IMG/VR virus record: IMGVR_UViG_3300018080_000117
Coordinates: 64,001 to 128,000 of that record
DNA: 64,000 bases
DNA from: a virus
Direction: 5' to 3' (one strand)
This document shows positions 1-23,705 of the stretch, one piece after another. Numbering within the stretch: the stretch's first letter is position 1; each line of letters starts with the position of its first letter. A model generated the notes under the pieces. It ran no database searches. It saw only the letters and a program-made list of their open reading frames with translations, and was not told the DNA's origin. Made by a program: the position numbers and the translations under genes.

Positions 1-590
1 ATTTTTTCTTGTGGTGTGTTTAGCCCGTGCATTTTTAGTAGCTTTACTGATTTTCCTAAAAGTGCTCCCTCAACCAAGTGTGTACCCTTCCAAGGGCGAG
101 GACTACCGTAGTACAACACATCGAAGTCTTTTGGCACTGTCGGATCGTGTCGAAAGTGTTCTGTGTTGATCCCCCCTGGAATAATCGGAATCTCTTGCTT
201 AGTTTTGGTGTGCTTTTTTATGTACTGCTCGACGTACCTAGAATTTGCAAAGTAAGTTAGTCCTGGTTGCTGCAATCCGGCCAGGGGTACCGCAGGGTTT
301 TTGTACTCGGCTTCTGCAGCCAGCACCCAAAACACTTTTAGCTTAGCTTTGGAGCGCAGACAAAGTCTGTACTGCTCTGCGAGGTTGAAAAGGGTCACAT
401 CGTACGTCTCGGTCTTCAAGCGGCTCATATCGAACGTAGGGGCTTGTGACGGCATCCAGGTACAAGGCTTCCCCTTCGGGGTTAGCAATTCTACCTCGTG
501 ACCTTTTTTCAGCATGCGATTGCTAATCTCCACGATTCTTCGGATACCGCCAACGCACAAAAGGTGAGGTTCGATAAAAGCGATTCTCAT
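1..590 (-). CDS. GT4-family (GT-B) glycosyltransferase, 3' end runs off the window
   Basis: Not in the ORF track. Manual translation from ATG at 590 gives MRIAFIEPHLLCVGGIRRIVEISNRMLKKGHEVELLT...FANSRY...IIPGGINTEHF...VLYYGSPRPWKG, which are typical GT4 N-terminal motifs. It abuts the stop of the 591..1622 gene. Confidence 0.85.
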   Translation of the reverse strand, partial: MRIAFIEPHLLCVGGIRRIVEISNRMLKKGHEVELLTPKGKPCTWMPSQAPTFDMSRLKTETYDVTLFNLAEQYRLCLRSKAKLKVFWVLAAEAEYKNPAVPLAGLQQPGLTYFANSRYVEQYIKKHTKTKQEIPIIPGGINTEHFRHDPTVPKDFDVLYYGSPRPWKGTHLVEGALLGKSVKLLKMHGLNTPQEK

Positions 591-1622
591 TTACTCCCCC
601 GTTATCTTCTTCACGGTGTTTACGAAACGTGCCCCTTGTTTGCTCCACTTGAAGCTTTGAGCAAGGATCATCCCATTTTTAGTAATTTGTTCTCTTAGGG
701 AACGCTCGTTGATCAAGCGTCCGATCTTTGCCATCAAATCTTTTTTCGTCCCGTCGGACACCAGGCAGTTTTTTCCGGACACTAAGTAATCTTCAAGACC
801 TTTGTTTTTCGTCCACACTACGGGAACACCGCAAGCCATCGCCTCTAACGGAGGCAATCCGAATCCTTCGTTCTTACTCGTTGCGACCCACACCTTGCAC
901 TGGTTGTAGATTAGCGGCAAAAAAGAAGTTGGGGGATCAATAAAAATAGCGTACTGGCAGTGCATATTCTGAAATAATTCTTTTTTGGCGTACTCAACCC
1001 GTGCCGCAACGAGCATCGCTTTGTACTTACGTTCTCGCTTAGCTCCTTGGCTTGCAGCCATACTAAGGGCTGCCAAAAGAACGTCGCTGTTTTTATCCTC
1101 AGAAGAGTGCAACAATCCCCCTACAGGGATTTGGCAACTAAATAACTTCGGCAGGGGTCGGAATATCTCGTCGACGGCGGGTGGGATCACAAAGACTTTC
1201 TCGTGATTCGCTTTTAAGGCAAGTCTAGCTAACCAAGAACTCGTTGCAATCACTGCGTCGTAAGGATAGCTTAGGTTTCTGTTCTCTTTTTCTTCGTTCT
1301 GTGTTCCGTACCCCTGCAACAAAAGAATGTGCTTTGCGTTGTCTTTCTTCAGATCCTTCACTTCTTCGGGATCCCCATCAAGGTAATCCACAATCACATC
1401 GGCATTTTTCAGGTGCTTTTTTCTTGCGTCTTTTTCTACCACCAAATTGCAGGTAATTTCTTTTAGCTTTGGCGTGCACATCCAATAAGTGGGATTGAGC
1501 TTTTTTGCTACGATCGCCACCCGGTTGTCTTTACTAATCCTGTTTACGTACTCTGCAAACCTAATAATTACTTTTGTCCCCCCTGAAACTTTCGTGTGTG
1601 GAGTAAGAAAAACGTATCGCAT
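591..1622 (-). CDS. GT4-family glycosyltransferase
   Basis: SGG N-terminal loop and the GT4 signature EGFGLPPLEAMACG. Confidence 0.9.
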   Translation of the reverse strand: MRYVFLTPHTKVSGGTKVIIRFAEYVNRISKDNRVAIVAKKLNPTYWMCTPKLKEITCNLVVEKDARKKHLKNADVIVDYLDGDPEEVKDLKKDNAKHILLLQGYGTQNEEKENRNLSYPYDAVIATSSWLARLALKANHEKVFVIPPAVDEIFRPLPKLFSCQIPVGGLLHSSEDKNSDVLLAALSMAASQGAKRERKYKAMLVAARVEYAKKELFQNMHCQYAIFIDPPTSFLPLIYNQCKVWVATSKNEGFGLPPLEAMACGVPVVWTKNKGLEDYLVSGKNCLVSDGTKKDLMAKIGRLINERSLREQITKNGMILAQSFKWSKQGARFVNTVKKITGE

Positions 1623-2507
1623 CTAGCCAACCCTCGAAAATATTCTCTTTGTATTTGTTTCTTCTTTTAGGCACGCAGGCGAAAACCAGATAGCTTCTTG
1701 ATTTTTGGTCTTGGTGCTATTGTACGTGCTGCGAACACGAGACCACCGCACGACATCCCACCCTGGCAGGTCATAATCTCCGATATGCCCGCATAGCGCA
1801 ACACGCAGCCGATCCTGCTCTGTTTCACGACACCACGCCTCGCAATGTGCAGCGACAGGCACCTGTTTTGAATATAGCCTCTCGAACCCCCTGTATGGCG
1901 GATCGAGAAACACCGCGCAAATACCGCCGCCCTCTAGTCCATAGCGCGTGTTGACACATCGGTCCCATGCGCCGTGCAAAACTCTAACGCGCTCTAAGCG
2001 GGCGCTTAGCTCTGCGACCAATTGCGCACCGCCAGATGTACTCTGAACACCCATGCCTATGTTGCTGATATGCGGGATCGGCCCAAGGCGTCGACCTGTT
2101 ATTTTGTCGCACCAGCCTTTTCCAATCCACGAGCACTGCCCCCACAACCACCAGCCCGCGATCCTAGGGTCCCCTGGCCACTCTGGGTCCAAGAGCCTGT
2201 CTTGCAGATCAGCCACCCTCTCTGGATCAGTCAACCACCAGTGCCTTGCCGACTGATCAATGTGACTCACCGGGTAGTCAGCTTCGGCCCATGTGGCATC
2301 TGGCTGATATTTCACGGCGCGCCAGAAGTTAGCTATGTATAGATTCAGATCACAGATCACCTCAAGATTTGCCTGGCGGGGGGCGTTGAGCAGCATTGCT
2401 GCCGATCCACAAAACGGCTCAATGTAATTTTTGACTCGCCCGAATCGTTGCCACACCAACTTAGCTACGCGGGACTTGCCGCCGAAATACGGAAATGGTG
2501 ACTTCAC
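1623..2507 (-). CDS. DNA adenine methyltransferase (Dam/D12-like)
   Basis: PYFGGKS, EPFCGSAA (SAM-binding), DPPY catalytic motif, terminal EAIW strand; visibly more GC-rich than its neighbours. Confidence 0.9.
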   Translation of the reverse strand: MKSPFPYFGGKSRVAKLVWQRFGRVKNYIEPFCGSAAMLLNAPRQANLEVICDLNLYIANFWRAVKYQPDATWAEADYPVSHIDQSARHWWLTDPERVADLQDRLLDPEWPGDPRIAGWWLWGQCSWIGKGWCDKITGRRLGPIPHISNIGMGVQSTSGGAQLVAELSARLERVRVLHGAWDRCVNTRYGLEGGGICAVFLDPPYRGFERLYSKQVPVAAHCEAWCRETEQDRLRVALCGHIGDYDLPGWDVVRWSRVRSTYNSTKTKNQEAIWFSPACLKEETNTKRIFSRVG

Positions 2508-3127
2508 CTTCGCTCCGAGTGGTAAAGTTGCTTAGCTTTCATTCGTTCCTTTTCCACATCCATACCTGAGACCCGCACAGAAGCCTCTCCTTCGTGCCAA
2601 ACAAACGATCCCTGGGACCAATAGCAATTTAGCCCCAAAGCTGTTCTAGAGCGGTCTATGAAGTCTGACTCTTGTCCGTAGAACGTGTAACGCTCATCGA
2701 ACTTATTTAGCGCGTGCCAAAGCTGCCTTTCGAAGACGAGGCAAAAGCCAGAAATCGGATCCGTCATTTTTTTGTACTTGCCGCTTCTTTTCTTAGCCTC
2801 TTCAGGAGTAGGGATTTTTTTTTGCGGGGAATGGCAATTGTTGGTACTAGGCCCGACGAATCCACAGTCTTTGAACTTATCAAAAGCTTCGAGCATAAGT
2901 TCCAACCAACCTGAGGTTACTTGGGTATCGGAGTTTAGCAAGCAAATGTAGTCCGCTTCGCTTTTGCGGATCAGTTTATTCCACACCTGTGTCAACGTAA
3001 GCTTATTTTTCTTGTTGTCGGTGTATGTCAGCGTAAACGGCACCGAGGTATGATTCAGAACGCTTTTCAAGCACTGGCTTTCCATCTCGGGTAATCCGTA
3101 GCCGACAACAATGATCTGCGTTTTCAT
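2504..3127 (-). CDS. GT2-family glycosyltransferase
   Basis: WNKLI..SEADYICLLNSD (DxD region), GFCLVF, FDERYTFYGQESDF, VWH; start placed at the ATG at 3127. Confidence 0.85.
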   Translation of the reverse strand: MKTQIIVVGYGLPEMESQCLKSVLNHTSVPFTLTYTDNKKNKLTLTQVWNKLIRKSEADYICLLNSDTQVTSGWLELMLEAFDKFKDCGFVGPSTNNCHSPQKKIPTPEEAKKRSGKYKKMTDPISGFCLVFERQLWHALNKFDERYTFYGQESDFIDRSRTALGLNCYWSQGSFVWHEGEASVRVSGMDVEKERMKAKQLYHSERR

Positions 3128-3339
3128 TAGCCATCCCACGTCGAGCTTGTTCTAACGTTTTTTCGGCACAACAACCACGCCACACAGCTAGGACACAGAT
3201 CCATCGAGTCCAGTTTTTCATTTCCAAAACTAATGTTTTCTATTCTTACCCAGCCTTCAGGAAGGTTCTCTTCGGTACTAGGTACCTGCTGTGAGTAACC
3301 ACAGTCGCTACGATCGCAGGTGATTACGTACTTTTTCAT
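3127..3339 (-). CDS. small phage Zn-finger protein
   Basis: CDRSDC ... DLCPSC cysteine pairs; translationally coupled to its neighbours. Confidence 0.6.
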   Translation of the reverse strand: MKKYVITCDRSDCGYSQQVPSTEENLPEGWVRIENISFGNEKLDSMDLCPSCVAWLLCRKNVRTSSTWDG

Positions 3340-3342
3340 TTC

Positions 3343-3900
3343 CTAGTCCTCACGTGCGATAAAAATGGGTTGGAAGTGCGGATCGGAAGGATAGGGCGGA
3401 TAACTTAGTTTGTCTTCGATCTGGTCTCCGAACAACTCTTCGTCGGGAAGTTCCACAAGTTGACTGTCTGTCAGGAACTGCAACAGGGTAAGTGTTTTTG
3501 CCTCTGTTAGCGTTCCGTTGTTGCAAGCTAAGCTAAGAGCTGCGTCTTGTTCCATACCCAAATTCACGTCGGCCAAACTAAAGTCTAGCGGTGCTCGACG
3601 GGGATAAACCGTTCTGTCTGGCAATTGGTAAATCTCCTGCACCGAGCTAATTCGGTAACAGACTTTCCTCGAAGTCCCGTCTTCTTGTAGACACACCAGC
3701 ATCCTCAATGCAGACGAGTACTGGTGTTGGTTGAGCCACATCGCTCCCCTTAGTTGAAATTCGTCGTCTCGATGCAGTAGCGGCAAAGTTAGGAAAGTGT
3801 CGTTTTCTGACCAATAAGCCGTCTTTGAAAAAAGGATCGCGTCAAGGCTTTCGATCAGGAATCTCTTCATCACTGTGTGTAAGGGAGATACGTTTGACAT
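3343..3900 (-). CDS. hypothetical protein
   Basis: 185-aa ORF in the operon, with a GAGG RBS upstream. Confidence 0.6.
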   Translation of the reverse strand: MSNVSPLHTVMKRFLIESLDAILFSKTAYWSENDTFLTLPLLHRDDEFQLRGAMWLNQHQYSSALRMLVCLQEDGTSRKVCYRISSVQEIYQLPDRTVYPRRAPLDFSLADVNLGMEQDAALSLACNNGTLTEAKTLTLLQFLTDSQLVELPDEELFGDQIEDKLSYPPYPSDPHFQPIFIARED

Positions 3901-4090
3901 AAGATGCCTCTCTGGAGCAATTGGAGGCCCTCAGGGCCTCTTGAAAGAACTGACCCAGGGCTTGTATCGGATTTTCGTACGAAGCCTCTGTAACCCACTC
4001 TGAGCCTTCCAAACGTTGAAAGTGCAAAACCTCGCCCTCAGCGATTACGCGGGAAGTGTTTAGCTTGCAGAGGATTTTGGGCTGATCCAA
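3842..4090 (-). CDS. hypothetical protein
   Basis: 82-aa ORF filling the operon gap and overlapping both neighbours. Confidence 0.4.
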   Translation of the reverse strand: MDQPKILCKLNTSRVIAEGEVLHFQRLEGSEWVTEASYENPIQALGQFFQEALRASNCSREASYVKRISLTHSDEEIPDRKP

Positions 4091-4445
4091 TTTCTAACCC
4101 CTTCTGGTTCGGCATTACCAAACCGCTACAGTAAGCTTTCCAGCGTTGCACAGAGTCTTGGTATTGAGTCCACAGCTCGGGTCCTTGTTCGCCGACCTTG
4201 CAAATAATCTCCAAAGCTGTGGGCAAGACCCTGATTTGTTCTTGTGCGGACTTATCCGAGTGCAACGGTTGGATCAACAACGCTGCTCCTCCGTCTCTGG
4301 GAACCTCAGCGTAGAGCTTAGGGTACACCACCCGCAGGGGTTGGATATTTCCGGCTAAGAAATTGTCATAGGGTTTTTGATAAATCGTTCCGAGCATTCT
4401 TTGGTTCGGCAAATAAATCATGACAAACAGATCTGCGTGTTTCAT
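4038..4445 (-). CDS. hypothetical protein
   Basis: ATG at 4445 overlaps the stop of the upstream glycosyltransferase (TAATG coupling). Confidence 0.6.
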   Translation of the reverse strand: MKHADLFVMIYLPNQRMLGTIYQKPYDNFLAGNIQPLRVVYPKLYAEVPRDGGAALLIQPLHSDKSAQEQIRVLPTALEIICKVGEQGPELWTQYQDSVQRWKAYCSGLVMPNQKGLEIGSAQNPLQAKHFPRNR

Positions 4446-5452
4446 TACTTTTCCTCCAACACGGTGTCGATGGCTTTTTGCCACAAAGCGTAGTTCTTAT
4501 TTAGGTCGTATTTTTCTTCGACTAACTTAGTTGCATTTTTGAGAACTTCTTTTCTCTCTTGTTCGTTGTTCAGCACGTACCGAACCAGCTCGTACCAATC
4601 CTTGCGTTGCTTAGCAAGGTATCCGTCAACACCGTGGGTGATTGTTTGTTGGTAAGGTCCAAAGTCACTGGCAATCGTTACGATGCCCTGTGCTGTGTAT
4701 TCTAGAAATTTCAAGTTCGACTTAGACAGATTGAATTTACAAGGCACCAACGGAGCTAAACCCACCGTTGCGTCTGTTTGGCTAAGTACGACGTGGAAGC
4801 CTTTGAACTCCACAGGCGGTACCTGGTAGATCCCTTTCATTGGTGCGTAGAAGACCTTCGGAAAACAATCCCCGTCTTTTTTCAGTTGCTGCATAGCAGG
4901 CTCGATAAGCGCTAGGTCTTTTTTGTGCGTGTGCGATCCTTGCCAAAGCACAACGGGTTTGACCGAGTTGTCAGGCTTAGGTGTGAACAACTCAAACGGT
5001 ACCGAGTTAGGAAGCACAAAGACGTTGTCGTTGTACTGCCGATAAACCTCTGCTAAGTCCTCGGTGGTAACAAACACCGCGTCAACTAAGTTACAGAAGC
5101 GTTTGACGTAGTCTTGCACCTGAGGATTTCCCAGTTCTTTTTTTGCAGGGTTCCAATCAGGGATCGAGAACAGATCATCGTCTATCTCGTACACCAATTT
5201 TGTTCTGGCTTTCCCAGGCCTGTTCTTAGTTTTTATCCTTTGTGCAGTCTCGTAGACCTTAGGCATGTACTGACGTTGGAAGATTGCTAGATCAAACCCT
5301 CCAACTTGTCGTTCGTCCATAACCCCTGTAACCGAGATCATGTACTCCTTCGAGTGTTTTGCTAATGTTGAAAAGGGAAGGTGAATTCTGTAGAACCAAC
5401 AAGCTCCAGAGTCACCTCGATAAGCGATTATTTCTGTAGGTTGTTTTTCCAT
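4445..5452 (-). CDS. GT-B glycosyltransferase (GT4-like, phage type)
   Basis: GACWFYR, FQR, YEIDDDL, VLPNS, WQGS.TH..DL, FN.SKS.LKFLEY, IASDFGPY motifs. Confidence 0.85.
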   Translation of the reverse strand: MEKQPTEIIAYRGDSGACWFYRIHLPFSTLAKHSKEYMISVTGVMDERQVGGFDLAIFQRQYMPKVYETAQRIKTKNRPGKARTKLVYEIDDDLFSIPDWNPAKKELGNPQVQDYVKRFCNLVDAVFVTTEDLAEVYRQYNDNVFVLPNSVPFELFTPKPDNSVKPVVLWQGSHTHKKDLALIEPAMQQLKKDGDCFPKVFYAPMKGIYQVPPVEFKGFHVVLSQTDATVGLAPLVPCKFNLSKSNLKFLEYTAQGIVTIASDFGPYQQTITHGVDGYLAKQRKDWYELVRYVLNNEQERKEVLKNATKLVEEKYDLNKNYALWQKAIDTVLEEK

Positions 5453-5505
5453 ACATCTTTCATACCCTGAAAAGAATAAATCAAAAAGAGGGTTCTTATG
5501 ATCTT

Positions 5506-6023
5506 CCTAAGGTCCGTAGGGTACCGAGACCGCGATAGCGGTGGAGGGACTAAAGACGGACCTTAGGGCGTCCGTACCCGTACGGTGGTTGGGTGATACA
5601 AGCTCCCGCTAAGGGAGCGAAGGATCTGCCCAAACAGCGTACGGCTTACTTTACCTAAAAAGTAAAATAATTTTTGTATATATTAGGTTTTTTAGTTTAC
5701 TCGAAATGTACCAGGCGGCCCACCGTAACCGCTGCCTTAGGCAGCCTGCCGTGGTTTGCCGCATGAAAGTTTTTTTAGTTTCCGAAAACTAAAAAATGGT
5801 CTACTCGCTAGACGGATCTATCAGCAAAACATGAAACATGTAATGTACAATCCGCCATGTGCGGCGTTCGGTAAATTACATGTAGTATGCAACAAGTAAT
5901 ACTCGTTAGCGTCGCAAGGTGTTGCGCCGCATGTCACTTCGCATTACTTGTTGGTATGGGAGGCAATGTATTCGCCTTCGGCTCATAAGCAACATTGCCT
6001 CACCATATTCGCCTTCGGCTCAT
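5506..6023. other. array of tandem stem-loops (structured non-coding DNA or RNA)
   Basis: Perfect inverted repeats at 5506-5517/5556-5567 (12 bp), 5578-5584/5638-5644, 5731-5745, 5771-5796, 5836-5844/5875-5883, 5890-5900/5943-5953 and 5960-5969/5992-6001. No credible ORF. Confidence 0.75.
5969..6023 (+). repeat. 18-nt direct repeat TATTCGCCTTCGGCTCAT, two copies
   Basis: Identical copies at 5969-5986 and 6006-6023. Confidence 0.9.
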
Positions 6024-6099
6024 GTTCGTTGTTCGTCGTTGTTTGTCGACGTAGGCCGCTGGGGCGGCAGGGAACCCGCGCGAGGCTACCCAGAAATCC

Positions 6100-6820
6100 G
6101 ATTTTTTGTCAAGGAGCATTTCGGTTTAATTTTTTTGTTTTGTTTTCGATGATTTCAATAGTGTACGATCTACAATTATAAAGTGATCTTTTCCAGTTTC
6201 TTGCTTTTTTGTGGAATTGGTACGTTCCTAGTAGTAAAATATGCCCGTTTACTGGACTCGAGTGTCAGGTTATTTTTTTCTACATGTTTGAAATCGTTCG
6301 ATTCACGAAAAGTTTGCGAGGTGAAGCGTTTTTACAAATTTTACTTTACCTTTTTCTACATGCCTGTAAATAAACAAGAAAAAAAAAGTCGAAACTACTA
6401 TACACTTTTCTGAAAACCAGGTAGCGCATTTTCTAAGTTTTATAAACTTATTGTTTATATACAATCGGTTATAGAAAAAAACCTTAGTTTTAGTCAAATT
6501 ATTACTTTTCTGAAACTAAGAAAGTCCCCTGCAAAATTTGTGCATTTTTTTCCGCGCGGTTTCTGTGGCTACGAGAAGGCCTTTTTTTGTTTTGGGTGAA
6601 GCCATATGGCGACAGGTGATTTGATAGAAGACCGAAACCAAACAACAATTTTTTATACAATAGATATTTTACAAAAGTTATTTTTTGGAAAAAATAGGTC
6701 GGGATGCATATTTTCGAGTTACTTGCAACAAAAAAAACGATCAAAAGGCAAAAAAGTTGATGGGCTTGGAGGGGGTCGAAAACCCTCTCTTTGGACCCCC
6801 AACAAAGGCTGTTTTTAGCC
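6100..6820. other. AT-rich non-coding tract (candidate origin or genome-end/packaging region)
   Basis: Long A and T runs, only spurious short ORFs, and located where gene orientation switches. Confidence 0.4.
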
Positions 6821-6855
6821 TGGTACGATGCCTCTAAGTTTGGTACTTATAAGAA

Positions 6856-7275
6856 ATGAAACCCATATACCTGTTTGTCAAAAGCGGTCGAAAAGTAGGC
6901 AAGCTAGTTGTAACACCGACCCACCTTGTTGTTATGGTAACCGACCACAAGTTCTTTGTTCCCCCTCTACAGACAGAGCACAGGTTCGAGTTCACTAGAA
7001 GGACACGCTTACGCAGCAGCCTTCTAAAACACGCAGGCAAAGCCTTGTTCAAGCCAAGTACCGGAACCTTTCTTGCTGAGATCAAGTTACCGAACAAACC
7101 TAAGTTTAGGGTTGCGTCTAAGCGTCGCTTGCCTGACTGGATTTGGAAGAGGGGTTTGCCAGAACCTAAAAAAAGGAAGCGTAAGTACAAACCGAAGTAC
7201 TACTCACTAGGCAGGACGAGAAACCAATCCAAGAACTGTGGGCGTAGGCAGTGTGCGGTTCTCAACAGTTACTAA
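6856..7275 (+). CDS. basic hypothetical protein
   Basis: 139-aa K/R-rich ORF that converges on 7272..7571. Confidence 0.5.
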   Translation: MKPIYLFVKSGRKVGKLVVTPTHLVVMVTDHKFFVPPLQTEHRFEFTRRTRLRSSLLKHAGKALFKPSTGTFLAEIKLPNKPKFRVASKRRLPDWIWKRGLPEPKKRKRKYKPKYYSLGRTRNQSKNCGRRQCAVLNSY

Positions 7276-7571
7276 TCTCTAATACCTTTTATCCTTGCCT
7301 GTACGCGCTTTAGCCAAGCTTGTCCAGACCCCGAACCCAACCACTGCACGAAAGAGCACACGGCGACCCTGCGAGGGTCTGAGGCAGGTACAAGCTCAAC
7401 CTTGGTGTTTGGCCCAGCGCATAACTGATCAATTAGGTCTGGTGTCTGGGGAAGGTTGAGCATTTGAAATTCGTGGGCAAAAACCCATTCCACTCTATTC
7501 TCGGGTTGCTCCAACCTTTCAGAGTAAGTGCCTACGTACTTTTGAATAAGCTTAGGTCGGCGTCGGTCCAT
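7272..7571 (-). CDS. phage hypothetical protein
   Basis: RVAVCSFVQWLGSGSGQAWL motif; purine-rich RBS. Confidence 0.6.
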   Translation of the reverse strand: MDRRRPKLIQKYVGTYSERLEQPENRVEWVFAHEFQMLNLPQTPDLIDQLCAGPNTKVELVPASDPRRVAVCSFVQWLGSGSGQAWLKRVQARIKGIRD

Positions 7572-7584
7572 TCCCCGTCCCCTG

Positions 7585-8406
7585 CTAGTGCATTTGGTAC
7601 TTGCCTGCAGATTTCGTTATTTCCCATTCCTTCCTTAGCTTAACCAAAGCTTGAGCCAAACTTTGGTCCACCTTATCAGGATCTCTATCGGGAAAGGCCT
7701 TGATAATCTTTTTGACCAGGTAATCCTTCGATCTTGCAACCCCGGATAAAAGAGCCTTCTCGACAACAGTCTGGACGGTTTTTCTATTTTTAGGTGTCTT
7801 AGCGACCTTTTTTCTCGTTACGTGTCGCTTAGTTTTCTTAGTTGTTTTGGCTTTCTTTTTGGGCTTAGCCACAAGCTTGATGGTTTCTTTCGGTTCTTCC
7901 TTACCCACGTGTTCGTTGTTGAGTTCCTTGCAAACGAACTCAAACAAATTGTTGTTGTGTTTTTTTATCTTCTCTTCGTAGCTCAACACCTCCTTTTCCT
8001 TTTCAGTCAAGGGTAGCTTTGCTTTCTTCTTCTTTTTTGCCATCTCAAGCCTAATCTGCAGTCGATTGGCCATCGAATACCGCGTCGAATAATGCGTCGA
8101 GCAGTACCCCTTACTGATTGATTTTTTGTCGCACTCATTAGCGACACATTGCTTCGGATAGGTAGCTTTTAGTGGAACCACAAAATAACTGTCCCGGTCA
8201 TCTTTGATCTTTAGCGCTTCTTTGATCAACTCCCAAGCTTTCTCGCTAGGAACCGATCTTCTGCTTTCCCAAGAATACAGGGACATCTTGGTATACCCAA
8301 TCTCCTGGGCCAGAGCGGCTACGCTAAAGCCTACGCTCTGCCTGGTTTTCTTCAAGCTTTTCAGTCTTTTCTTCTTCTGTGGAAAACTCTGTGGACTAGT
8401 TGTCAT
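7585..8406 (-). CDS. XRE-type HTH regulator with CCCH-like Zn motif, Lys-rich linker and C-terminal winged-helix-like domain
   Basis: LKKTRQSVGFSVAALAQEIGYTKMSLYSWESRRSVP (XRE HTH), CVANEC...GYCSTHY; GGAGG RBS. Confidence 0.8.
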   Translation of the reverse strand: MTTSPQSFPQKKKRLKSLKKTRQSVGFSVAALAQEIGYTKMSLYSWESRRSVPSEKAWELIKEALKIKDDRDSYFVVPLKATYPKQCVANECDKKSISKGYCSTHYSTRYSMANRLQIRLEMAKKKKKAKLPLTEKEKEVLSYEEKIKKHNNNLFEFVCKELNNEHVGKEEPKETIKLVAKPKKKAKTTKKTKRHVTRKKVAKTPKNRKTVQTVVEKALLSGVARSKDYLVKKIIKAFPDRDPDKVDQSLAQALVKLRKEWEITKSAGKYQMH

Positions 8407-8450
8407 TTACTTACCTCCAACTAAGTTGTTGTGATCCGATCCATACCTTG

Positions 8451-8533
8451 TTTTTTGCAAACAATCCTTGACTACTACCAATTCTCCATGCTAGTCTCTT
8501 TCCCACTTTTGGGCAAGGTTTGTTTACAAAAAA
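8451..8533. promoter_or_regulatory. overlapping bidirectional sigma70-like promoters with a 20-bp inverted upstream element
   Basis: Plus strand: TTGACT(8468)-18 nt-TAGTCT with extended TG. Minus strand: TTGCCC-17 nt-TAGCAT. Segments 8451-8470 and 8514-8533 are an 18/20 inverted repeat. Confidence 0.7.
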
Positions 8534-8553
8534 TTCATTTTCTAGGGGGCAGC

Positions 8554-9315
8554 ATGCTTAGCATCAAAGAGCAGCAAAAGCTGGTGGAGGAGTGCTCGTA
8601 CCTCGCAACAACCATCGCGGCAAAGTATTTCAAACGTAAAAAGGGGAATAAGCAAGAGGATTTTCTAGACCTTCAGCAGGAGGGGTTTGTGGGATTGTGC
8701 CACGCTGCAAAGCTCTACAATCCGAAGAACAAGGCTGGAGCTAAGTTTTCGACCTACGCGCAATACTGGGTCCACAAGTACGTCAGAAAGATGGCCATGA
8801 AGTCGATGAGCCCTTTGAAAATTTCCGAAGAGGCAATGCACAAGAGAAAGCGACTAAACGAGATCGCAGACCGTACTTACACAAAAAGCGGTGTCTACCT
8901 CGATTCAGAAATGCCTGAAATGAATGATAACTTATTGAAGCCCATTAGTTTGGATTTTCAGTACGAAAAATCTAAAGCTTCTTACGTCGTCAACGATTGT
9001 ATCGAGCCCAGCCAAAGCAACTCCTTAACAAGTTACTTCAATTGCTTTGGCGAAAGTGGGTTGATTAATCGTGTCGAGTACACGAAGATAAGAGAAGTAA
9101 TGCCTCAGCTCAACCCCAAAGAGCACCGGGTTCTAAACCATTACCTCAACGGTGTTGAAAAAACCGAGATTGCACGACGGTGCAAGGTTACCAAACAACG
9201 GGTATACTTCTTGTACAACTCCGCTGTGGAGCATTTGCAGGCAATAATAGGTAGCCAACAAAATGGATCTCAAATCGGCAATTCGCGCAAACAAACAGCT
9301 AACCAAACGATTTGA
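8554..9315 (+). CDS. sigma-70 family RNA polymerase sigma factor
   Basis: Region 2 DLQQEGFVGLCHAAKLYNP...KFSTYAQYWV and region 4 KTEIARRCKVTKQRV; start moved to the ATG at 8554 behind AGGGGG. Confidence 0.9.
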   Translation: MLSIKEQQKLVEECSYLATTIAAKYFKRKKGNKQEDFLDLQQEGFVGLCHAAKLYNPKNKAGAKFSTYAQYWVHKYVRKMAMKSMSPLKISEEAMHKRKRLNEIADRTYTKSGVYLDSEMPEMNDNLLKPISLDFQYEKSKASYVVNDCIEPSQSNSLTSYFNCFGESGLINRVEYTKIREVMPQLNPKEHRVLNHYLNGVEKTEIARRCKVTKQRVYFLYNSAVEHLQAIIGSQQNGSQIGNSRKQTANQTI

Positions 9316-10015
9316 ACGCTACCTAAAGGCCCACCCCGACGTACTAAAAAAAGTAAGCAAAAGGGTATCTACTCGCATCCGCAGACAAGCCTGCTTAGGA
9401 TACGCCCCCAAAAGCTACGACCTACAAGACTGGGCAAAACAAAGAAACATCCAACAAAGTACCTTAGCTGCGTTGGGGCTGGTTACGGAAAACGGAAACT
9501 CATTTTTCAGAAATCGAATTATCATCCCGATCTTTTATGCGGGTTGGGTAATTGGGTTTGGAGGTAGGGCAGTAGACGAATCGGACATAAAATACATCAA
9601 TTCCAAAAAGTCTGATCTGTTTGACAAAAAATCCGTACTATTCAACTTACAAAATGCACGAGAATCAATTATTAGAACAAAAGCTGCAGTAATTGTAGAA
9701 GGGTATTTTGACTGCTTGAAGATGCATGAGATTGGTATCACTAATTGTGTTGCCACGTGCGGAACTTCCTTCACGGCTGAACATGCTTCGATGCTTCAAA
9801 GGTATACCAACAAGGTCCTTATTGCGACGGACGGAGACGGTGCGGGAAGAAAGGCTGCCAAAAAGATTGCTCGGTCGCTTGCTAATCTTGGAATACCTTC
9901 CGCCAAACTCCGTTTACCTGGGTTAGATCCCGAAGAATTTGTCAACGAGTACGGTCCTACAAAGATGCGCAAGTTAATAAAAGCTACTTGGAGACGAGAT
10001 GGAAATTACCGCTGA
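9263..10015 (+). CDS. dnaG: DnaG-type primase catalytic core (TOPRIM) lacking the zinc-binding domain
   Basis: FRNRIIIPI, GFGGR, KYINS, VEGYFD, GTS, DGDGAG motifs; no N-terminal CHC2 finger. Confidence 0.9.
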   Translation: MDLKSAIRANKQLTKRFERYLKAHPDVLKKVSKRVSTRIRRQACLGYAPKSYDLQDWAKQRNIQQSTLAALGLVTENGNSFFRNRIIIPIFYAGWVIGFGGRAVDESDIKYINSKKSDLFDKKSVLFNLQNARESIIRTKAAVIVEGYFDCLKMHEIGITNCVATCGTSFTAEHASMLQRYTNKVLIATDGDGAGRKAAKKIARSLANLGIPSAKLRLPGLDPEEFVNEYGPTKMRKLIKATWRRDGNYR

Positions 10016-10566: not shown

Positions 10567-12139
10567 TCTCACCGAATGCTAAGCTGTGCTTTCGATGAAG
10601 ACTAAGACCAAAAGCTTCGTTTGCGAGTTGCCTCTGGACCCCACAAGAGAGGATGAACGCAGACTGTTTGTTTGCTTCGAGGTCGCACGGCAAATCTACA
10701 ACGCGTGTTTGGGTGAAGGACTGAGACGACTCCGGCTAATGCGTGAAAGCCGTGACTGGCAGCGGGCTCGGGCTCTGCCAAAAGGTCATGAAAGAAGCAC
10801 ATTGTTTCGATCTTGTACGATCCGCTTTGGATTCCGAGAGTATGATCTGCACGCATACGCCAAGCAGTTCAATCGTGGCTGGCTCGGCCAGCATATCGAC
10901 ATCAACACAATCCAGAAGCTGGCAACCAGGGCGTATTGTTCTCTCAAGGAACACATGTTTGGCAAGCGAGGTCGACCTCGCTTCAAAGGCTATCGGGGCC
11001 TGCAGTCTGTGGAGGGCAAGACCAACGCGTCGGGAATTCGTTGGCGAGATGGTGTGGTTCATTGGAAAGGCTTGTCATTGCAAGCGTTGCTGGACCCGCA
11101 GGACAAAGCTGGTTGGCAGGCAGAAGCTCTGAGCCGCAGAACTAAGTACTGCCGCATTGTGCGGCGCCAGGTCCGAGGAAAGACCCGCTGGTACGTTCAA
11201 CTGGTGCAAGTTGGACTGCCGCCCCCTAAGCAACACGAGCGCACCAAGGCAGTCGTTGGTTTGGATGTCGGACCTAGCACCATCGCTGTGGTGGGCGAGC
11301 AAAGAGCCGTTCTGGAGCGTTTCTGTCCGTCGGTCGAGCAGCCCTGGCGCCAAACGCGTCGGATTCAAAGAGCCATGGACCGCTCGCGGCGGTCCACCAA
11401 CCCGGACAACTACAACCCAGACGGCACCGTCAAACCCGGCCGCAAAAGATGGAATCGTTCCGAGCGGTACAAGAGGCTCGCAGCCCAGCGGGCAGAGAAC
11501 GAACGCCGATTGGCCGCAGAGCGCAAGCGAGCCCATGGGGAACTTTCCAACCGCATTCTGGCGCTGGGCACGACGGTCAGAACTGAGAAGTTGAGCTACC
11601 GATCCTTCCAGAAGAACTTCGGCAGAAGCGTCAAGGTCCGTGGCCCTGGGATGCTTATCGACATGCTGCGCCGCAAGGCTGAGAGTGCTGGCGGCCAGCT
11701 CGAGGAGTTCCCAACGCAACCGACGAAGCTGTCTCAAGTTTGCCATGGGTGTGGCCAGACCAAGAAGAAGCCCTTGTCGCTTCGGACCCACGAATGCGAA
11801 TGCGGAGTGGGTCCGGTGCAGAGGGACTTGTACAGTGCGTTCCTGGCTTGCTTTGTAAGCCAGGCCAAGCTCAACGCCCGGCAGGCCCAAGAGGCCTACC
11901 CGGCTGCGGAACCGCTGCTGCGACGGGCGGCGTTGAGCTTCAATCAATCTGCGAGCAGAAGGGCTTCGGCTGCTTCTCGCGTCAACACAGACGTTAGAGC
12001 GGATCGTCCGTCGAAGGGGGTCAGGAAGGCATCGAGGCCGCAGACGTCGTACCGGCGTGGTTCCCATGTCCGGGAGGGCTGCGGAGAGATGCGTTCTGTT
12101 TCCTCCAGAACCCCCGGGCTTTAGCCCTGGGGAGGTTCA
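10555..12139 (+). mobile_element. non-autonomous IS200/IS605-family element (tnpB only, IS1341-like)
   Basis: GC-rich block in a lower-GC genome. Right-end hairpin GAACCCCCGGGCTTTAGCCCTGGGGAGGTTCA (~12108-12139). No tnpA. Left boundary is approximate. Confidence 0.8.
10586..12124 (+). CDS. tnpB: RNA-guided endonuclease TnpB
   Basis: RuvC-I GLDVG, RuvC-II RTEKL, Zn ribbon CHGC...CEC, RuvC-III QRDLYSAFLA; all three catalytic acidic residues are present. Confidence 0.93.
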   Translation: MLSMKTKTKSFVCELPLDPTREDERRLFVCFEVARQIYNACLGEGLRRLRLMRESRDWQRARALPKGHERSTLFRSCTIRFGFREYDLHAYAKQFNRGWLGQHIDINTIQKLATRAYCSLKEHMFGKRGRPRFKGYRGLQSVEGKTNASGIRWRDGVVHWKGLSLQALLDPQDKAGWQAEALSRRTKYCRIVRRQVRGKTRWYVQLVQVGLPPPKQHERTKAVVGLDVGPSTIAVVGEQRAVLERFCPSVEQPWRQTRRIQRAMDRSRRSTNPDNYNPDGTVKPGRKRWNRSERYKRLAAQRAENERRLAAERKRAHGELSNRILALGTTVRTEKLSYRSFQKNFGRSVKVRGPGMLIDMLRRKAESAGGQLEEFPTQPTKLSQVCHGCGQTKKKPLSLRTHECECGVGPVQRDLYSAFLACFVSQAKLNARQAQEAYPAAEPLLRRAALSFNQSASRRASAASRVNTDVRADRPSKGVRKASRPQTSYRRGSHVREGCGEMRSVSSRTPGL

Positions 12140-12160
12140 GTCCAGGGTCTCATGAGGGTA
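11950..12160 (+). ncRNA. predicted TnpB omega/reRNA (scaffold overlapping the tnpB 3' end, plus ~20-nt guide from the right flank)
   Basis: Established TnpB architecture; the low-complexity C-terminal ORF extension runs through the right-end hairpin; 5' boundary is a guess. Confidence 0.55.
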
Positions 12161-12259
12161 GGCCCTTAAGCCTTCGGGCAACCCTCCCTTCTTCCTTTCT
12201 CGCTTCCTAAAAGCTAAGCAAATAGCCAAGGCATAATCAACCAATCAAAGGAGATCATT

Positions 12260-12851: not shown

Positions 12852-15197
12852 ATGGCTGTCATTACTTCTAACGCTTCCGGCAATTGGTCAGCAGGCGGTA
12901 CGTGGGTAGGTGGTGTTGCTCCTGCGTCCGGTGACTCTGCGGTTATCGCTAACACTCACGTTGTAGACATTGACGGAAATATTACGGTGGGTCCTGCCAG
13001 TGGGCTCGATCCTAACCCAACTAGCGATTGTTCGGTGTACATCCAAACTGGTGGAACCCTTCGAGTTCCGCATACCGTAGCAGGTAACTACACCCTTACG
13101 CTTCGCGGTCCAATCTACGTAGCTACTGGCGGTACGTTTACGATCGGTACCGACAGCGATAATCCAATTCCTAGTAACCGAACTTTCGATATTCTCTTCG
13201 ACGACATTACGGTCAACAATTGGATAGCAGGGTCGTTTAAGATCTACGGATACCCGTCTTACCACATGGCAGACGCCGATTCTTATCGTTCTAGAATTGA
13301 CACAGACGCTGGAGCAGGTGCAGGAGCTACGCTAAGTTTGCCAGATAGTGTGGATTGGCAAAGTGGAGACACCGTATTGGTTGGCACAGGCGGCGACCCT
13401 GGCCATGCGATCACAGGTGTAGAAAAGGTTACTCTTACTGGCAAGACAGACGCAAGCACCTTTACTGCCAACCTTGGGTCTAATCACTTTGGAGATGCAA
13501 ATTACGGGGATGTACTAGTAAACATAACTAGAAACGTAAACATCGATATCGGTGGGGCTTACCAGTACCAATTTGCAAATCGGGATAGTACAGTTTCATT
13601 TGTTAGAGACGCAGAGTTTGACCTTAACTGGTGCTGCTTTAGCAACGGAGGAAGAAGCACAGAAGCTCTTTTTGAGTTTGGTCTGTTGAATGCTAGGTAC
13701 GCTGCAGACAAGGTAAGCTTCAATCACGTATGTTTCGACACAATCCGATCGGCTACGGTACCTTGGATCAACATTGAGAACTGTGGGATCGATCCTGCGG
13801 ACGGGTATCAATTTACAGATCTCGTTTTTTACGACTCCTACATTTGTATTCGAGTACAAGACGGTACAGGCTGGAGGATAAACGGAATAACAAGCATTGA
13901 TGCTAATAGCACACACCTAAATTCTATAAACACAACCCTAGACTCAACAGGGATTGAAGAGGTTTTGAATGCTTGGTTTGTGTACGACGGTATTGTGTTC
14001 GATGACATCATGCCTAGTTTGGTGACTAACTTCAAAATCCATGGGGTTGACTATTTTGCTAATGTATCTTCAACCACTTCTAGTGACAACCAACGAAAGT
14101 CTAAATGGGATACTGGAGAAATTTTCGCTTTGCAAAATGTGGCAGGAACGTTGATAGGTACGGGGTCAGACAATCCTTTGAATTGGTTTTTCAAAGACGT
14201 TGAATGGAAATCTTGTCTTGGGCATTGTTTGAATTACAACGCATGCTCCGGTACTTCGGTGTTTGAGTTTGTTGGTTGTTCTTTTGACGGCAACAATACT
14301 GGCAATAACAACGCTCGTGCAGCAATCGCAATTAACCAAGCTCCTGGATCTTCGTTAATTTTTCGTTCGTGCAACTTCGGAACAACAACTCAAAATTATC
14401 GGTGGAACACCATATTCAACACACACCCACGAGGCGCTTTGTCTAGACTTCTTTTTTCTAATTGCGTAATCAAAGAACCTGCCAACTGGTCACCTACCAC
14501 AACCTATGACTGGTACGGAGACGGCGACAGAGAAAGACTGTGGGCGCTTGGACTAAATTCTTACCAATCGCAATACGACAGAATGCAACTTGGAATTAAC
14601 GGGTCATATGAATTGGTTGACTGCCAATTACTAAACGCAGCCGACGCCGATCAATGGAGCACTTTGTATCCGAACACCGATTCCGTAGCCTTTATACACG
14701 GCGGTGGGGAGATGCACAAAGTAAGTTCTGGAGAAGCCGCCGGTTATCAAGATGGAACTTATGCCCGAAAGTTTTTGCCGTTTAACCCAGGCATGCGAAC
14801 TTATGCAACCTATGCGAGACCGTTGCTAATCCCACTAACGAGCGGGGAACAGATAACAGTAACCTTAGACTTCAAGAAAAATTTAGCAGTGCAATCTGAT
14901 TTTCGCTTACCGAAACTGCACATGGAAGGCTGTGGTATCTCAACGCTAGACACTATGCAGGATATTCAAAACACCTGGGATACCCTTACAGTAACTGGAA
15001 CTGCTAGCTACACAGACGTTGTTCGGGTTACGGTATCTTGTTGGGCCATGGTCGACGATTCATACATATTGAGCGCCGACAACCCAACAAGACAAGCTAC
15101 TACGTCAACGGTAGGTGCTTACAACTATCCTTACGACCCTGGGGATTCAGACAACCTAATTTTATACTGTGATAAGCTTACCGTAACGATTAGTTGA
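12852..15197 (+). CDS. G8-domain / beta-helix virion surface or adhesin-like protein
   Basis: N-terminal SGNWS..TWVGGVAP..GDS.VI motif, VDWQSGDTV, VNITRNV, Asn/Thr-rich beta-helix-like body. Confidence 0.7.
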   Translation: MAVITSNASGNWSAGGTWVGGVAPASGDSAVIANTHVVDIDGNITVGPASGLDPNPTSDCSVYIQTGGTLRVPHTVAGNYTLTLRGPIYVATGGTFTIGTDSDNPIPSNRTFDILFDDITVNNWIAGSFKIYGYPSYHMADADSYRSRIDTDAGAGAGATLSLPDSVDWQSGDTVLVGTGGDPGHAITGVEKVTLTGKTDASTFTANLGSNHFGDANYGDVLVNITRNVNIDIGGAYQYQFANRDSTVSFVRDAEFDLNWCCFSNGGRSTEALFEFGLLNARYAADKVSFNHVCFDTIRSATVPWINIENCGIDPADGYQFTDLVFYDSYICIRVQDGTGWRINGITSIDANSTHLNSINTTLDSTGIEEVLNAWFVYDGIVFDDIMPSLVTNFKIHGVDYFANVSSTTSSDNQRKSKWDTGEIFALQNVAGTLIGTGSDNPLNWFFKDVEWKSCLGHCLNYNACSGTSVFEFVGCSFDGNNTGNNNARAAIAINQAPGSSLIFRSCNFGTTTQNYRWNTIFNTHPRGALSRLLFSNCVIKEPANWSPTTTYDWYGDGDRERLWALGLNSYQSQYDRMQLGINGSYELVDCQLLNAADADQWSTLYPNTDSVAFIHGGGEMHKVSSGEAAGYQDGTYARKFLPFNPGMRTYATYARPLLIPLTSGEQITVTLDFKKNLAVQSDFRLPKLHMEGCGISTLDTMQDIQNTWDTLTVTGTASYTDVVRVTVSCWAMVDDSYILSADNPTRQATTSTVGAYNYPYDPGDSDNLILYCDKLTVTIS

Positions 15198-15221
15198 CTT
15201 TTTCAAAAAGCACGGTACAAT
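15194..15221 (+). promoter_or_regulatory. sigma70-like promoter
   Basis: TTGACT(15194-15199)-16 nt-TACAAT(15216-15221). Confidence 0.65.
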
Positions 15222-22705: not shown

Positions 22706-23705
22706 AGAAATGCAAACCTTGTTGAAACAAACACCTAGAGAAATGCAAACCTTGTTGATTCAAGATTGCGAGGTTGGAGAAGAGTACCTTACTAAGTATG
22801 GAAAAATTATCAAGCTGCTAGCGTTGAAGCCAAAGCCCAGGGTTCTGGTTCCCGCAATCGACACTGAAGTCGAGGTAGGGTTGGAATACGAAGTGTACGC
22901 GGTACCTTTGACGTCGACCGAAGATCAAATTGAAGCAGAGATCGAAAAATCTAAGCCTCTCGAAAAAGAGCTTCGTAGCAGCAGTAACAACGACAAACCT
23001 AAACCCAAGCGCAAGGTTCTGGTCAAGTCGAAAAAGACAAGCCGCAAAGACATGCAAATCACCAAGGATAACTCTGTTTCAAAAAGCGACGACCTTGAAG
23101 CAGAGGAACTTTTTTACTTTTGTCCTGAGGCATCAGAAGAAGTTGAAGAAGAAATTTTGACCGAGGAAGACCTAGAAGAGGTTTTGGAAGAACCAGAAGA
23201 AGAAGAACCAGAAGAAGAAGAACCAGAAGAAGAAGAACCAGAAGAAGAAGAAGAACCAGAAGAAGAAGAACCAGAAGAAGAAGAACCAGAAGAAGAAGAA
23301 CCAGAAGAAGAAGAACCAGAAGAAGAAGAACCAGAAGAAGAAGAACCAGAAGAAGAACCAAAGAAAAAGACAAGACGGACAAAAAAGCCCGCTGAAAAAA
23401 AGAAGCCTGCGAAGAAGGTTTCCGAAAAGAAAAAGAAGGCTGTGAAAAAGCCCACCGCAAAGAAAAAGAAGACCGCAAAGAAAAAGGAGATGCCTAAAAC
23501 AGCAAAAGACTTTGTTGTGTCTTTGTTGAAAGTCTCGAAGTGGGAACGTGGGCAAATTGCCGAACAACTTATTGAGCACGGTTACACGAAAAAGACAGAT
23601 GTCAAGTCTGTTGCTCAATACGTATCTGTCATGATCAACAACTTGAAAAAGAAAGACGGGTACAAGGTCGAAAGAGTCGCTAAAGGAACCTACCGAATAA
23701 AATAA
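22680..23705 (+). CDS. charge-block protein: acidic (EEEEP)n tract, histone-H1-like Lys-rich tract and C-terminal winged-helix-like domain
   Basis: Translated sequence; AAGGAG RBS. Confidence 0.7.
   Translation: MPQKKQTPKEMQTLLKQTPREMQTLLIQDCEVGEEYLTKYGKIIKLLALKPKPRVLVPAIDTEVEVGLEYEVYAVPLTSTEDQIEAEIEKSKPLEKELRSSSNNDKPKPKRKVLVKSKKTSRKDMQITKDNSVSKSDDLEAEELFYFCPEASEEVEEEILTEEDLEEVLEEPEEEEPEEEEPEEEEPEEEEEPEEEEPEEEEPEEEEPEEEEPEEEEPEEEEPEEEPKKKTRRTKKPAEKKKPAKKVSEKKKKAVKKPTAKKKKTAKKKEMPKTAKDFVVSLLKVSKWERGQIAEQLIEHGYTKKTDVKSVAQYVSVMINNLKKKDGYKVERVAKGTYRIK
22692..22757 (+). repeat. 33-nt tandem duplication (KQTP(K/R)EMQTLL x2)
   Basis: AAACAAACGCCTAAAGAAATGCAAACCTTGTTG and AAACAAACACCTAGAGAAATGCAAACCTTGTTG. 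Confidence 0.85.
23187..23360 (+). repeat. coding minisatellite (GAAGAAGAAGAACCA)n, ~12 units encoding EEEEP
   Basis: Uses only GAA and CCA codons; one 18-nt unit and shorter terminal units. Confidence 0.95.

Follow-up and report, generated by a model that had tools for sequence, protein, structure and literature searches.

A hairpin cluster upstream of a glycosyltransferase operon

The stretch of DNA analysed here, referred to as the window, comprises 64,000 nt (bases 64001-128000) of the 136,432-bp IMG/VR virus record IMGVR_UViG_3300018080_000117, whose completeness is estimated at 74%. According to PHROG and Pfam matches of its open reading frames (ORFs), the gene content of the window fits that of a large tailed phage, including a baseplate J-like protein, a DnaG-type primase, a DnaB-like helicase and a second helicase, an SbcC-like ATPase, a sigma factor, a TnpB-like ORF and a family-A DNA polymerase fused to a uracil-DNA-glycosylase domain. 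The genes from 3 to 5452 are all encoded on the minus strand and constitute a glycosyltransferase/methyltransferase (DNA-modification) operon that runs leftward. To its right lie 1403 nt (5453 to ~6855) in which no convincing ORF was found and which, on a crude ORF map, represent the largest non-coding gap of the record; the primase, helicase and DNA polymerase genes are located within 3-20 kb beyond it. The right part of the gap (~750 nt) has a GC content of 38%, while the left ~600 nt (~45-50% GC) hold up to eleven hairpins placed back to back (~5506-6068), whose edge lies 53 nt upstream of the start codon of the first operon gene. This hairpin cluster is the subject of the present analysis. 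The features are listed below, with a strand where one was assigned.

4445-5452, minus strand: first operon gene, 335 aa, GT4-type (PHROG 7162 glycosyltransferase, E 4e-50; Pfam Glycos_transf_1)
5506-5517/5556-5567: hairpin 1, perfect 12/12-bp outer stem, internal loops and inner CCGC-GATA-GCGG hairpin at 5540-5551
5578-5593/5629-5644: hairpin 2, 16-nt arms with 14 pairs and G-G and G-A mismatches, inner GCTCCC-GCTAA-GGGAGC hairpin at 5602-5618
5646-5665: small AT-rich hairpin, TTACTTT/AAAGTAA
5712-5748: composite GC-rich hairpin, CAGGCGGCC.../...GGCAGCCTG, with inner GCTGCC-TTA-GGCAGC (arms 5731-5736/5740-5745)
5771-5781/5786-5796: AT-rich hairpin, perfect 11/11 bp, TTTTTTAGTTT-CCGA-AAACTAAAAAA
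5799-5813: small hairpin, GTCTA-CTCGC-TAGAC
5836-5848/5871-5883: hairpin 7, 13-nt arms with 12/13 pairs, inner CGCC-ATGTGC-GGCG, arm carrying ACATGTAAT
5890-5900/5943-5953: hairpin 8, perfect 11/11-bp stem, inner hairpin at 5909-5930, arm carrying ACAAGTAAT
5960-5969/5992-6001: hairpin 9, perfect 10/10-bp stem, its loop containing copy 1 of an 18-nt module
5969-5986, probably minus strand (judged from the archaeal G-U asymmetry described below): 18-nt module copy 1, TATTCGCCTTCGGCTCAT on the plus strand, covariance model score 34.4 bits, E 5e-8
6006-6023, probably minus strand (on the same grounds): 18-nt module copy 2, 37 nt from copy 1, without an enclosing long stem, covariance model score 32.4 bits, E 2e-7
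6026-6045: tandem TCGTTGTTCG/TCGTTGTTTG, C/A-rich on the minus strand and unpaired in the folds
6055-6068: GC hairpin, GCCGC-TGGG-GCGGC, the rightmost of the cluster

A preceding sequence-only reading had listed seven inverted repeats between 5506 and 6001, and every one of them was recovered at the same positions. The mini-hairpins inside hairpins 1 and 2 were likewise confirmed in the sequence, as were the GCC-GAA-GGC mini-hairpin, which is found on the minus strand inside the 18-nt module, and the 18-nt direct repeat, one copy of which sits in the loop of the 5960/6001 stem. Beyond that list, the hairpins at 5646-5665, 5712-5748, 5799-5813 and 6055-6068 stretch the cluster to ~6068. Some arms are related to each other: a third copy of the TTTTTTAGTTT arm at 5688-5698 means that this arm is present three times in the cluster, and the arms of hairpins 7 and 8 share four ACAWGTAAT copies that form two inverted pairs. 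The position of the cluster at a strand-switch point, as it had been described, holds for its left side, all genes up to 5452 being minus-strand genes; the long run of plus-strand genes, however, begins only at 8431, and minus-strand ORFs (7272-8406) intervene between the gap and this run.

The cluster is more structured than shuffled sequence

An inverted-repeat census of the whole record (perfect stems of at least 10 bp, loops of 3-60 nt) returned 27 perfect inverted repeats, four of which fall in 5506-6001. The folding of 5490-6110 (621 nt) was compared with that of dinucleotide shuffles (n = 20 per test). With RNA parameters the z-scores were -6.86 for the plus and -10.22 for the minus strand, and with DNA parameters -8.74 and -8.29, respectively, none of the 20 shuffles being as good in any test. 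Both strands thus exceed the shuffles as RNA and as DNA, which agrees with the proposal that either strand could fold, and shuffled controls fell well short of the structure seen here. The RNA folding energy of the region was -240.9 kcal/mol on the plus vs -227.2 kcal/mol on the minus strand. As had also been noticed, the stems are almost entirely Watson-Crick: hairpins with at least 8 pairs in 5453-6120 contain 105 Watson-Crick pairs, one G-T pair and 6 other mismatches.

When the record was scanned with sliding windows of 120 nt (3408 windows), the best z-score at the cluster was -3.4 and other spots scored higher, such as 29281 (z -5.1). No single hairpin is exceptional; the unusual trait is the unbroken packing of hairpins over ~600 nt. 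The structure, its non-randomness and its position are established, and the cluster is a real, unannotated structured non-coding element. The most structured spot of the record in the 120-nt scan, 29241-29760, where several windows neighbouring 29281 were also below -3.2, lies within or at the start of a 340-aa ORF (29241-30263), contains a perfect 11-bp inverted repeat (29305-29340) and has no Rfam match.

The sequence-only reading recognised no family in the cluster. Accordingly, no Rfam 15 model reached its gathering score in the 64-kb window, large phage-borne RNAs, ribozymes and leaders included, and at E <= 10 only three matches were obtained in 5300-6900, with 16-23 bits against thresholds of 40-90. 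ARAGORN predicted no tRNA or tmRNA gene in the window. Terminator-like sites were absent from 5453-6855; three were present in 5000-9000 (two at 5204-5220 and one at 8867) vs 5.1 expected from shuffles. In 50,697 phage records, blastn detected nothing similar to 5400-6700. As a probe, a 17-mer taken from hairpin 2 was rejected, having just two viral matches with unrelated flanks. Hairpins other than the module are single-copy in the phage, and when the whole cluster was compared with five module-rich genomes, the module alone matched. As a class, whether structured leader, origin-type palindromes or repeat accretion, the cluster varies known kinds.

The 18-nt module is a hairpin shared by phages, bacteria and archaea

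The minus strand of the 18-mer, AUGAGCCGAAGGCGAAUA, reads AU-GA-GCC-GAA-GGC-GA-AU, that is, AU/AU pairs, tandem G.A, a GCC/GGC stem and a GAA triloop. In the plus sense, the fold consists of A2-T18, T3-A17, a 2x2 TC/TC loop, G6-C14, C7-G13, C8-G12 and a triloop. A covariance model built from 41 instances, the two window copies among them, found exactly two copies in the window, both exact representatives of the pan-domain hairpin. Compensatory variants were found: TATTCGGCTTCGCCTCAT in twelve archaeal copies, ..GACTTAGTC.. in one and TACTCG..CTCGC in three. In the model, pair 12-18 was CG in 35, GC in 4 and AU in 1 of 40 distinct instances, pair 8-22 was UA in 39 and CG in 1, and the covariation score was above those of all 500 shuffles and all slid controls. 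Because the variants are compensatory, the module folds as a hairpin, and both this fold and the identity of the module are established.

Viral contigs contained 42 exact matches to TATTCGCCTTCGGCTCAT, and all but one (L039) came from a single family of related phage contigs; given this kinship, the viral matches correspond roughly to one evolutionary event. A degenerate pattern found 47 stretches, five beyond the 42 exact ones. In the phage family the module is single-copy and lies within an invariant 25-mer in a divergent intergenic region, beside variable hairpins and a palindromic GTGTCGC..GCGACAC box. The contigs concerned (L024-L065, 4-40 kb) carry the module followed by ATTGTA (complement TACAAT, -10-like) as the 25-mer, in a gap between a lysis module and early genes (proteasome-like protein, Cas4-like nuclease), and the adjoining box, GCGACACGCCGTA, occurs in either orientation depending on the subfamily.

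Prokaryote contigs, taken as one genome per species, contained 117 exact stretches, against ~17 that chance was estimated to give for an 18-mer when both strands of 596 Gb are counted. Singleton matches, some of them inside ORFs, may be due to chance, but the multi-copy occurrence in metagenome-assembled genomes (MAGs) cannot be. The exact module was present in DPANN archaea, candidate phyla radiation (CPR) bacteria, Bacteroidota, Fibrobacter, Syntrophia and phages. Copies with at most 3 mismatches were counted in five MAGs, with the reversed pattern as control:

Bacteroidales MAG: 76 copies, control 4
Woesearchaeota MAG: 31 copies, control 0
Syntrophaceae MAG: 13 copies, control 2
Fibrobacter MAG: 12 copies, control 4
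Saccharibacteria MAG: 7 copies, control 0

By a crude ORF call, 66 of 80 module loci were intergenic. Among these, 24 lay between convergent and 6 between divergent genes, 11 and 8 were in the two co-directional orientations and 17 had one called neighbour; the module has no orientation bias (11 vs 8).

Two of these genomes carry the module inside larger repeats. In the Bacteroidales MAG (G001; L070, L075, L124, L125 and ~30 further loci) it is internal to a miniature inverted-repeat transposable element (MITE) of ~330 nt, which has terminal inverted repeats TTAACCCGCAA/TTGCGGTTAA, ends in TTAA and breaks the assembly, many copies being found at contig ends. In the Woesearchaeota MAG (G002) it belongs to a ~95-nt repeated element without Rfam match, present in 31 copies in 1.5 Mb (loci L073, L081, L108, L127, L131, L135, L138, L145, L189-L201 and L208), and the element forms a three-way junction, two of whose helices covary strongly. 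The consensus fold of the archaeal element (20 of 23 aligned copies) comprises 437 Watson-Crick, 42 G-U and 2 A-C pairs on the purine-rich AUGAGCC...GAAUA strand, and the alifold energy was -21.7 kcal/mol on this strand vs -13.8 kcal/mol on the other. This G-U excess suggests an RNA function, or at least a single-strand function, of the purine-rich strand, and the copies of the archaeal element resemble small RNA genes, or repeats derived from RNA, of a single family.

The tandem G.A in Y-GA-R context on a short GC stem resembles the stem II extension of the hammerhead ribozyme. With hammerhead domain 2 (U7-G8-A9/stem II/G12-A13-A14) the module shares A-U-G-A, GCC-GAA-GGC and G-A-A, and in the archaeal family it stands in a three-way junction with G-U-C after the second helix. 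In contrast to the hammerhead, position 15.1 is U instead of A, and GAA is followed by U-A. The G-U-C junction, seen in the archaeal family alone, is absent from the window, copy 1 being part of a plain hairpin there. A hammerhead identity was rejected: the C3-U4-G5 core is absent and only A-U-G-A is fixed, while the three preceding bases vary by context, and in the archaeal family these three bases pair with the 3′ strand (CAG/CUG, CGG/CCG, UGG/CCA). No Rfam model covered the module at the loci that bear it, ribozyme models including the hammerhead among them. Full-text and keyword searches found no published description of the module, the text matches being unrelated primers and the keyword matches irrelevant as judged from title or abstract; the pan-domain 18-nt module seems to be undescribed. 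It is a candidate for a new widespread nucleic-acid motif with a directly testable partner or activity.

The corresponding gap of related phages is structured but not similar in sequence

Relatives were gathered with a profile of the flanking glycosyltransferase, which gave 19 viral loci, nine of them (L003-L011) at 43-48% identity. A search with the single protein found no closer relative in viral contigs, and two matches at 29% identity in metagenome contigs. The order of the operon genes is kept in eight of the nine closest loci (L003-L010). Blastn of the 1403-nt gap against all 19 loci gave no significant match (best E 0.075), and the covariance model detected no module in the nine relatives. 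The sequence-only reading had looked to homologous regions for kept stems or compensatory changes; the nearest relatives retain neither sequence nor stems and, at 43-48% protein identity, are too distant for a covariation test, but their syntenic gaps are still structured. A divergent gap occurs at the same place, and seven of the nine gaps tested had z <= -3 (a rough estimate, with 10 shuffles each). Differing in kind from the cluster, these gaps contain short sites (8-12 bp) that recur both directly and inverted, together with a small number of perfect GC hairpins. On the opposite side, the relatives have a phage metallopeptidase gene (six of seven first genes) and DNA methylases, neither of which is found there in the window. 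G-T and A-C mismatches in their hairpins numbered 17 vs 11 (duplicated loci included), which gives no strand signal. On these comparisons, the gap is a conserved structure-rich control place, and the window's own hairpins are not conserved.

The positions of promoter-like sites differ among the relatives. L004 has a sole promoter-like site facing the operon and, downstream of it, two perfect GC hairpins, whereas in L008 and L011 the best operon-facing promoter (11/12 and 10/12 matches) is downstream of the repeat and hairpin arrays. Near the glycosyltransferase operon of L010 (1274-3307, minus strand), a full-length EF-G-like translation GTPase of 677 aa with five EF-G domains was observed.

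The cluster as a candidate leader RNA

Among the interpretations considered, we tentatively favour the one in which the cluster makes up a 5′ leader RNA of ~620 nt, with many hairpins, for the glycosyltransferase operon. This reading remains short of probable; it is ranked slightly ahead of a DNA-level element, which is followed by an accretion of mobile repeats and a plus-strand RNA, in that order. The large non-coding RNA put forward by the sequence-only reading is possible, and a minus-strand leader is the form of it that we prefer. Here we infer the transcription of the cluster, its strand, its promoter and any RNA-level function. Leftward transcription on the minus strand would start at a promoter bordering the cluster on its right and continue into the operon from 5452. 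The bead-like hairpins, in each of which an internal loop separates a long lower stem from a short, GC-rich upper one, would act as RNA stabilisers or as processing or regulatory sites, so that an early operon could be controlled by its leader hairpins. The leader would carry two copies of a borrowed module, which is also found in unrelated phages and in bacterial and archaeal small repeats. The features of the promoter region and of the AT-rich part of the gap are the following.

6083-6112, minus strand: candidate sigma-70-like promoter, TTGACA (6112-6107), 18 nt, TAGCCT (6088-6083), predicted start at ~6076, weak -10
6113-6855: AT-rich right part of the gap, 38% GC, with direct repeats and promoter-like sites in both directions
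6275/6351: direct repeat in the AT-rich part, TTTTTCTACATG
6404/6504: direct repeat in the AT-rich part, ACTTTTCTGAAA

No sigma-70-like promoter was seen in the 53-nt spacer before the operon, either by eye or with a consensus scan, and the operon promoter would therefore lie to the right of the cluster. The consensus scan called another minus-strand candidate at 6158-6129 and plus-strand candidates at 6621 and 6668. Candidates in both directions would agree with divergent promoters in this zone, the cluster being part of the transcript that runs left. The TTGAC[AT]-N17/18-TAGCCT arrangement of the candidate at 6112-6083 recurs at ~63996 and extends beyond the window end, and a shared AT-rich 18-mer with a -35-like box is located at 6329, further right than the cluster. 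Excess structure is limited to the stretch from the candidate start at ~6076 to the gene: the minus strand of 5453-6076 had a z-score of -7.05 (30 shuffles), and the AT-rich remainder (6111-6855) showed no excess folding (z -0.6). In addition, the purine-rich strand of the module, which is the G-U-rich one in archaea, is the minus strand of the window and thus the sense strand of the operon.

At least one other promoter of the record offers a precedent. At ~62.2-62.8 kb of the genome (1.2-1.8 kb left of the window), the minus strand carries a canonical TTGACA-17-TAAAAT promoter with a TTTTTGAAAAAC palindrome in its spacer, repeated just upstream. The ~300-nt leader after this promoter (~62.7 kb) is moderately structured (z -3.05), and we count it, together with the arrangement in L004, in favour of the leader. 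A similar promoter with TTTTTCAAAAAG was observed at 15194-15221, ahead of a UDP-glucose dehydrogenase gene.

The hairpins also recall the T7-type RNase III signals and 5′ protective stem-loops, which serve in the processing and stability of phage early mRNAs. Both consist of independent hairpins of ~17-22 stacked pairs with a lower stem, an internal loop and an upper stem, located in non-coding sequence before early genes. The cluster differs in that up to eleven hairpins are packed in a single leader instead of being distributed between genes, with perfect Watson-Crick pairing and without G-U pairs. An RNase III-type processing may be considered by analogy, the likeness being one of shape alone.

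Several observations weigh against the leader. The candidate promoter at 6112-6083 has a weak -10 and was not called by the consensus scan. The leader ahead of UDP-glucose dehydrogenase shows no unusual structure (z -0.2). Among the sequencing runs searched, one DNA run alone, the probable source, contained the stretch, and no RNA run did. The main stems are nearly devoid of G-U pairs and the two strands are equal in folding, whether as RNA or as DNA, a pattern more typical of DNA palindromes or young repeats than of an old structured RNA. On reading the sequence, neither strand showed an enrichment of GNRA or UNCG loops. In L008 and L011, the position of the best promoter leaves the arrays outside the leader, and the relatives' arrays, with short sites in both orientations, look like protein-binding DNA. 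Finally, other module families give no uniform strand signal, those of the Bacteroidales and Syntrophaceae folding better in the plus sense.

If the cluster is a leader, RNA-based control of a phage DNA-modification (glycosylation) operon would here be unusually elaborate, and an operon of this kind decides the escape of the phage from host restriction. A more ambitious extension, which we regard as unlikely, is that the module is a new pan-domain functional RNA module, similar to hammerhead domain 2 but without the catalytic core, which may act as a docking site for a universal factor or as part of an undescribed class of small ribozyme or non-coding RNA (ncRNA) and would spread on MITEs, small archaeal RNA genes and phages, with two copies in a ~620-nt leader that would control a DNA-glycosylation operon.

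Alternative interpretations

The next alternative, which we consider possible if doubtful, is an element that acts at the DNA level. The hairpins would be cruciforms or single-stranded DNA (ssDNA) hairpins at or near a replication origin, for priming or helicase loading, or a protein-bound control region between divergent early operons, with 6113-6855 as the unwinding or iteron part. The sequence-only reading had proposed an ssDNA origin or priming signal, and this idea stands insofar as both strands fold with DNA parameters (z -8.7 and -8.3), G-U pairs are almost absent and the largest non-coding gap of the record adjoins a 38%-GC stretch (6001-7000) with direct repeats. The genes for primase, helicases and DNA polymerase are 3-20 kb away, and repeated arms such as TTTTTTAGTTT (three times) and ACAWGTAAT (four times), as well as the 8-12-bp direct and inverted sites of the relatives, upstream of the best promoter in L008 and L011, also favour a DNA-level element. 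On one strand, the module forms tandem G.A with a GAA triloop, a combination that is very stable in ssDNA. The proposed check of the cumulative GC skew located the minimum of the record at genome 70-74 kb (window ~6000-10000), but this minimum coincides with the switch in gene orientation and is not independent evidence. Furthermore, none of the 44 DnaA boxes of the genome (TTATCCACA-like, at most 1 mismatch) falls in 5453-6855, so that no DnaA-box cluster marks the gap, although a phage-specific initiator would not need such boxes. Most repeats are unique and have 22-42-nt spacers, unlike operators or iterons, and each would need a separate binding protein. The relatives' gap lies between glycosyltransferase and metallopeptidase/methylase operons, away from replication genes, and we know of no origin mapped in this phage group, which we count against an origin.

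The closest parallels for such an element are the G4/phiX-type priming sites and the plasmid single-strand origins (sso), which are initiation signals and origins of ssDNA replicons. They share with the cluster stable hairpins in clusters, mini-loops closed by G..A, strand-specific folding of one element and proximity to a presumed origin. In contrast, the present case is a large double-stranded DNA phage with its own primase and helicases, no sequence similarity to these sites was found, and the placement of an origin here depends on the confounded GC skew. If the cluster is a DNA-level origin element, it would show where replication begins in a large, uncultured phage clade. The packaging or terminus signal also put forward by the sequence-only reading found no evidence in the contig data, where one 28-kb contig bridges the region without variants, joints or ends. 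The longest contig of the same run, a separate one of 186,665 nt, comes near the genome size that a completeness of 74% implies for the 136-kb record.

A less likely explanation is accretion, in which the gap has served as a safe landing place for selfish or neutral palindromic mini-elements, similar to MITEs or repetitive extragenic palindromic (REP) sequences and without function for the phage, the module copies being the recognisable ones. Elsewhere the module is indeed the core of multi-copy elements, the Bacteroidales MITE and the Woesearchaeota element; its copies are mostly intergenic, most often in convergent position and without orientation bias, each hairpin of the cluster resembles a tiny element with perfect terminal inverted repeats, and nothing is conserved in the relatives by blastn or the module model. 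However, the hairpins besides the module are single-copy in the phage and absent from the five module-rich genomes, the 17-nt hairpin 2 probe had only its two unrelated viral matches, and neither target-site duplications nor shared ends were seen. The structure-rich gaps of the relatives also suggest selection at this place. Like REP sequences, bacterial interspersed mosaic elements (BIMEs) and MITEs, the cluster is composed of short palindromic units that are intergenic and often clustered, and the module is truly part of a MITE. REP clusters repeat one family, whereas here every hairpin but the module is unique.

A link of the module to transposase genes found no support. For a link to REP-associated tyrosine transposases (RAYT) or IS200-IS605, Y1_Tnp genes were present in three of the five module-rich genomes, and none of four gene loci had the module in the fetched flanks (at most 4 mismatches). 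The TnpB ORF of the window (10586-12124) lies at a distance of 4.6 kb, and the module is absent from its ends.

A free-standing ncRNA of ~600 nt, or several small RNAs, on the plus strand and starting at ~5508 behind the -10-like TATGAT (5497-5502) is improbable: the lower RNA folding energy of the plus strand, the good -10 hexamer just ahead of hairpin 1, the T-run at 6102-6107 and the better plus-sense folding of the module in the Bacteroidales and Syntrophaceae families speak for it, but a -35 element and a hairpin immediately ahead of the T-run are lacking, Rfam gives no match even to large phage-borne RNAs, nothing is conserved in the relatives, and on this strand the module is the pyrimidine-rich UC/UC version, without known stabilising features.

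Other observations in the window

The 18-mer TTTTTACAAATTTTACTT of the AT-rich part of the gap (6329-6346) recurs identically at 63980-63997 and is followed in each case by a -35-like hexamer (TTTACC and TTGACT, respectively); early promoters possibly share it as an UP element or as a regulator site. The 17-mer AAAAACCTTAGTTTTAG at 6477 has a second copy 9 kb leftward, beyond the window. The 13-mer TCCGTAGGGTACC, common to the gap and to the leader at 15293, was dropped, as ~6 such chance matches were estimated for a 1.4-kb region against the genome.

The DNA polymerase has less than 31% identity to any of the 50,697 deposited phage records. Its ORF (23705-26332, plus strand, 875 aa) combines an N-terminal uracil-DNA-glycosylase-superfamily domain and a 3′-5′ exonuclease domain in a single frame. 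An island of 60.6% GC, situated between the primase and the genes downstream, contains the TnpB/Cas12f-like ORF (plus strand, 512 aa; PHROG transposase, Pfam Cas12f1-like TNB), beside which no TnpA gene was seen. The 3′ end of this ORF and the next ~80 nt (11721-12200) show the strong structure (z about -3.5) that a guide (omega) RNA would be expected to have.

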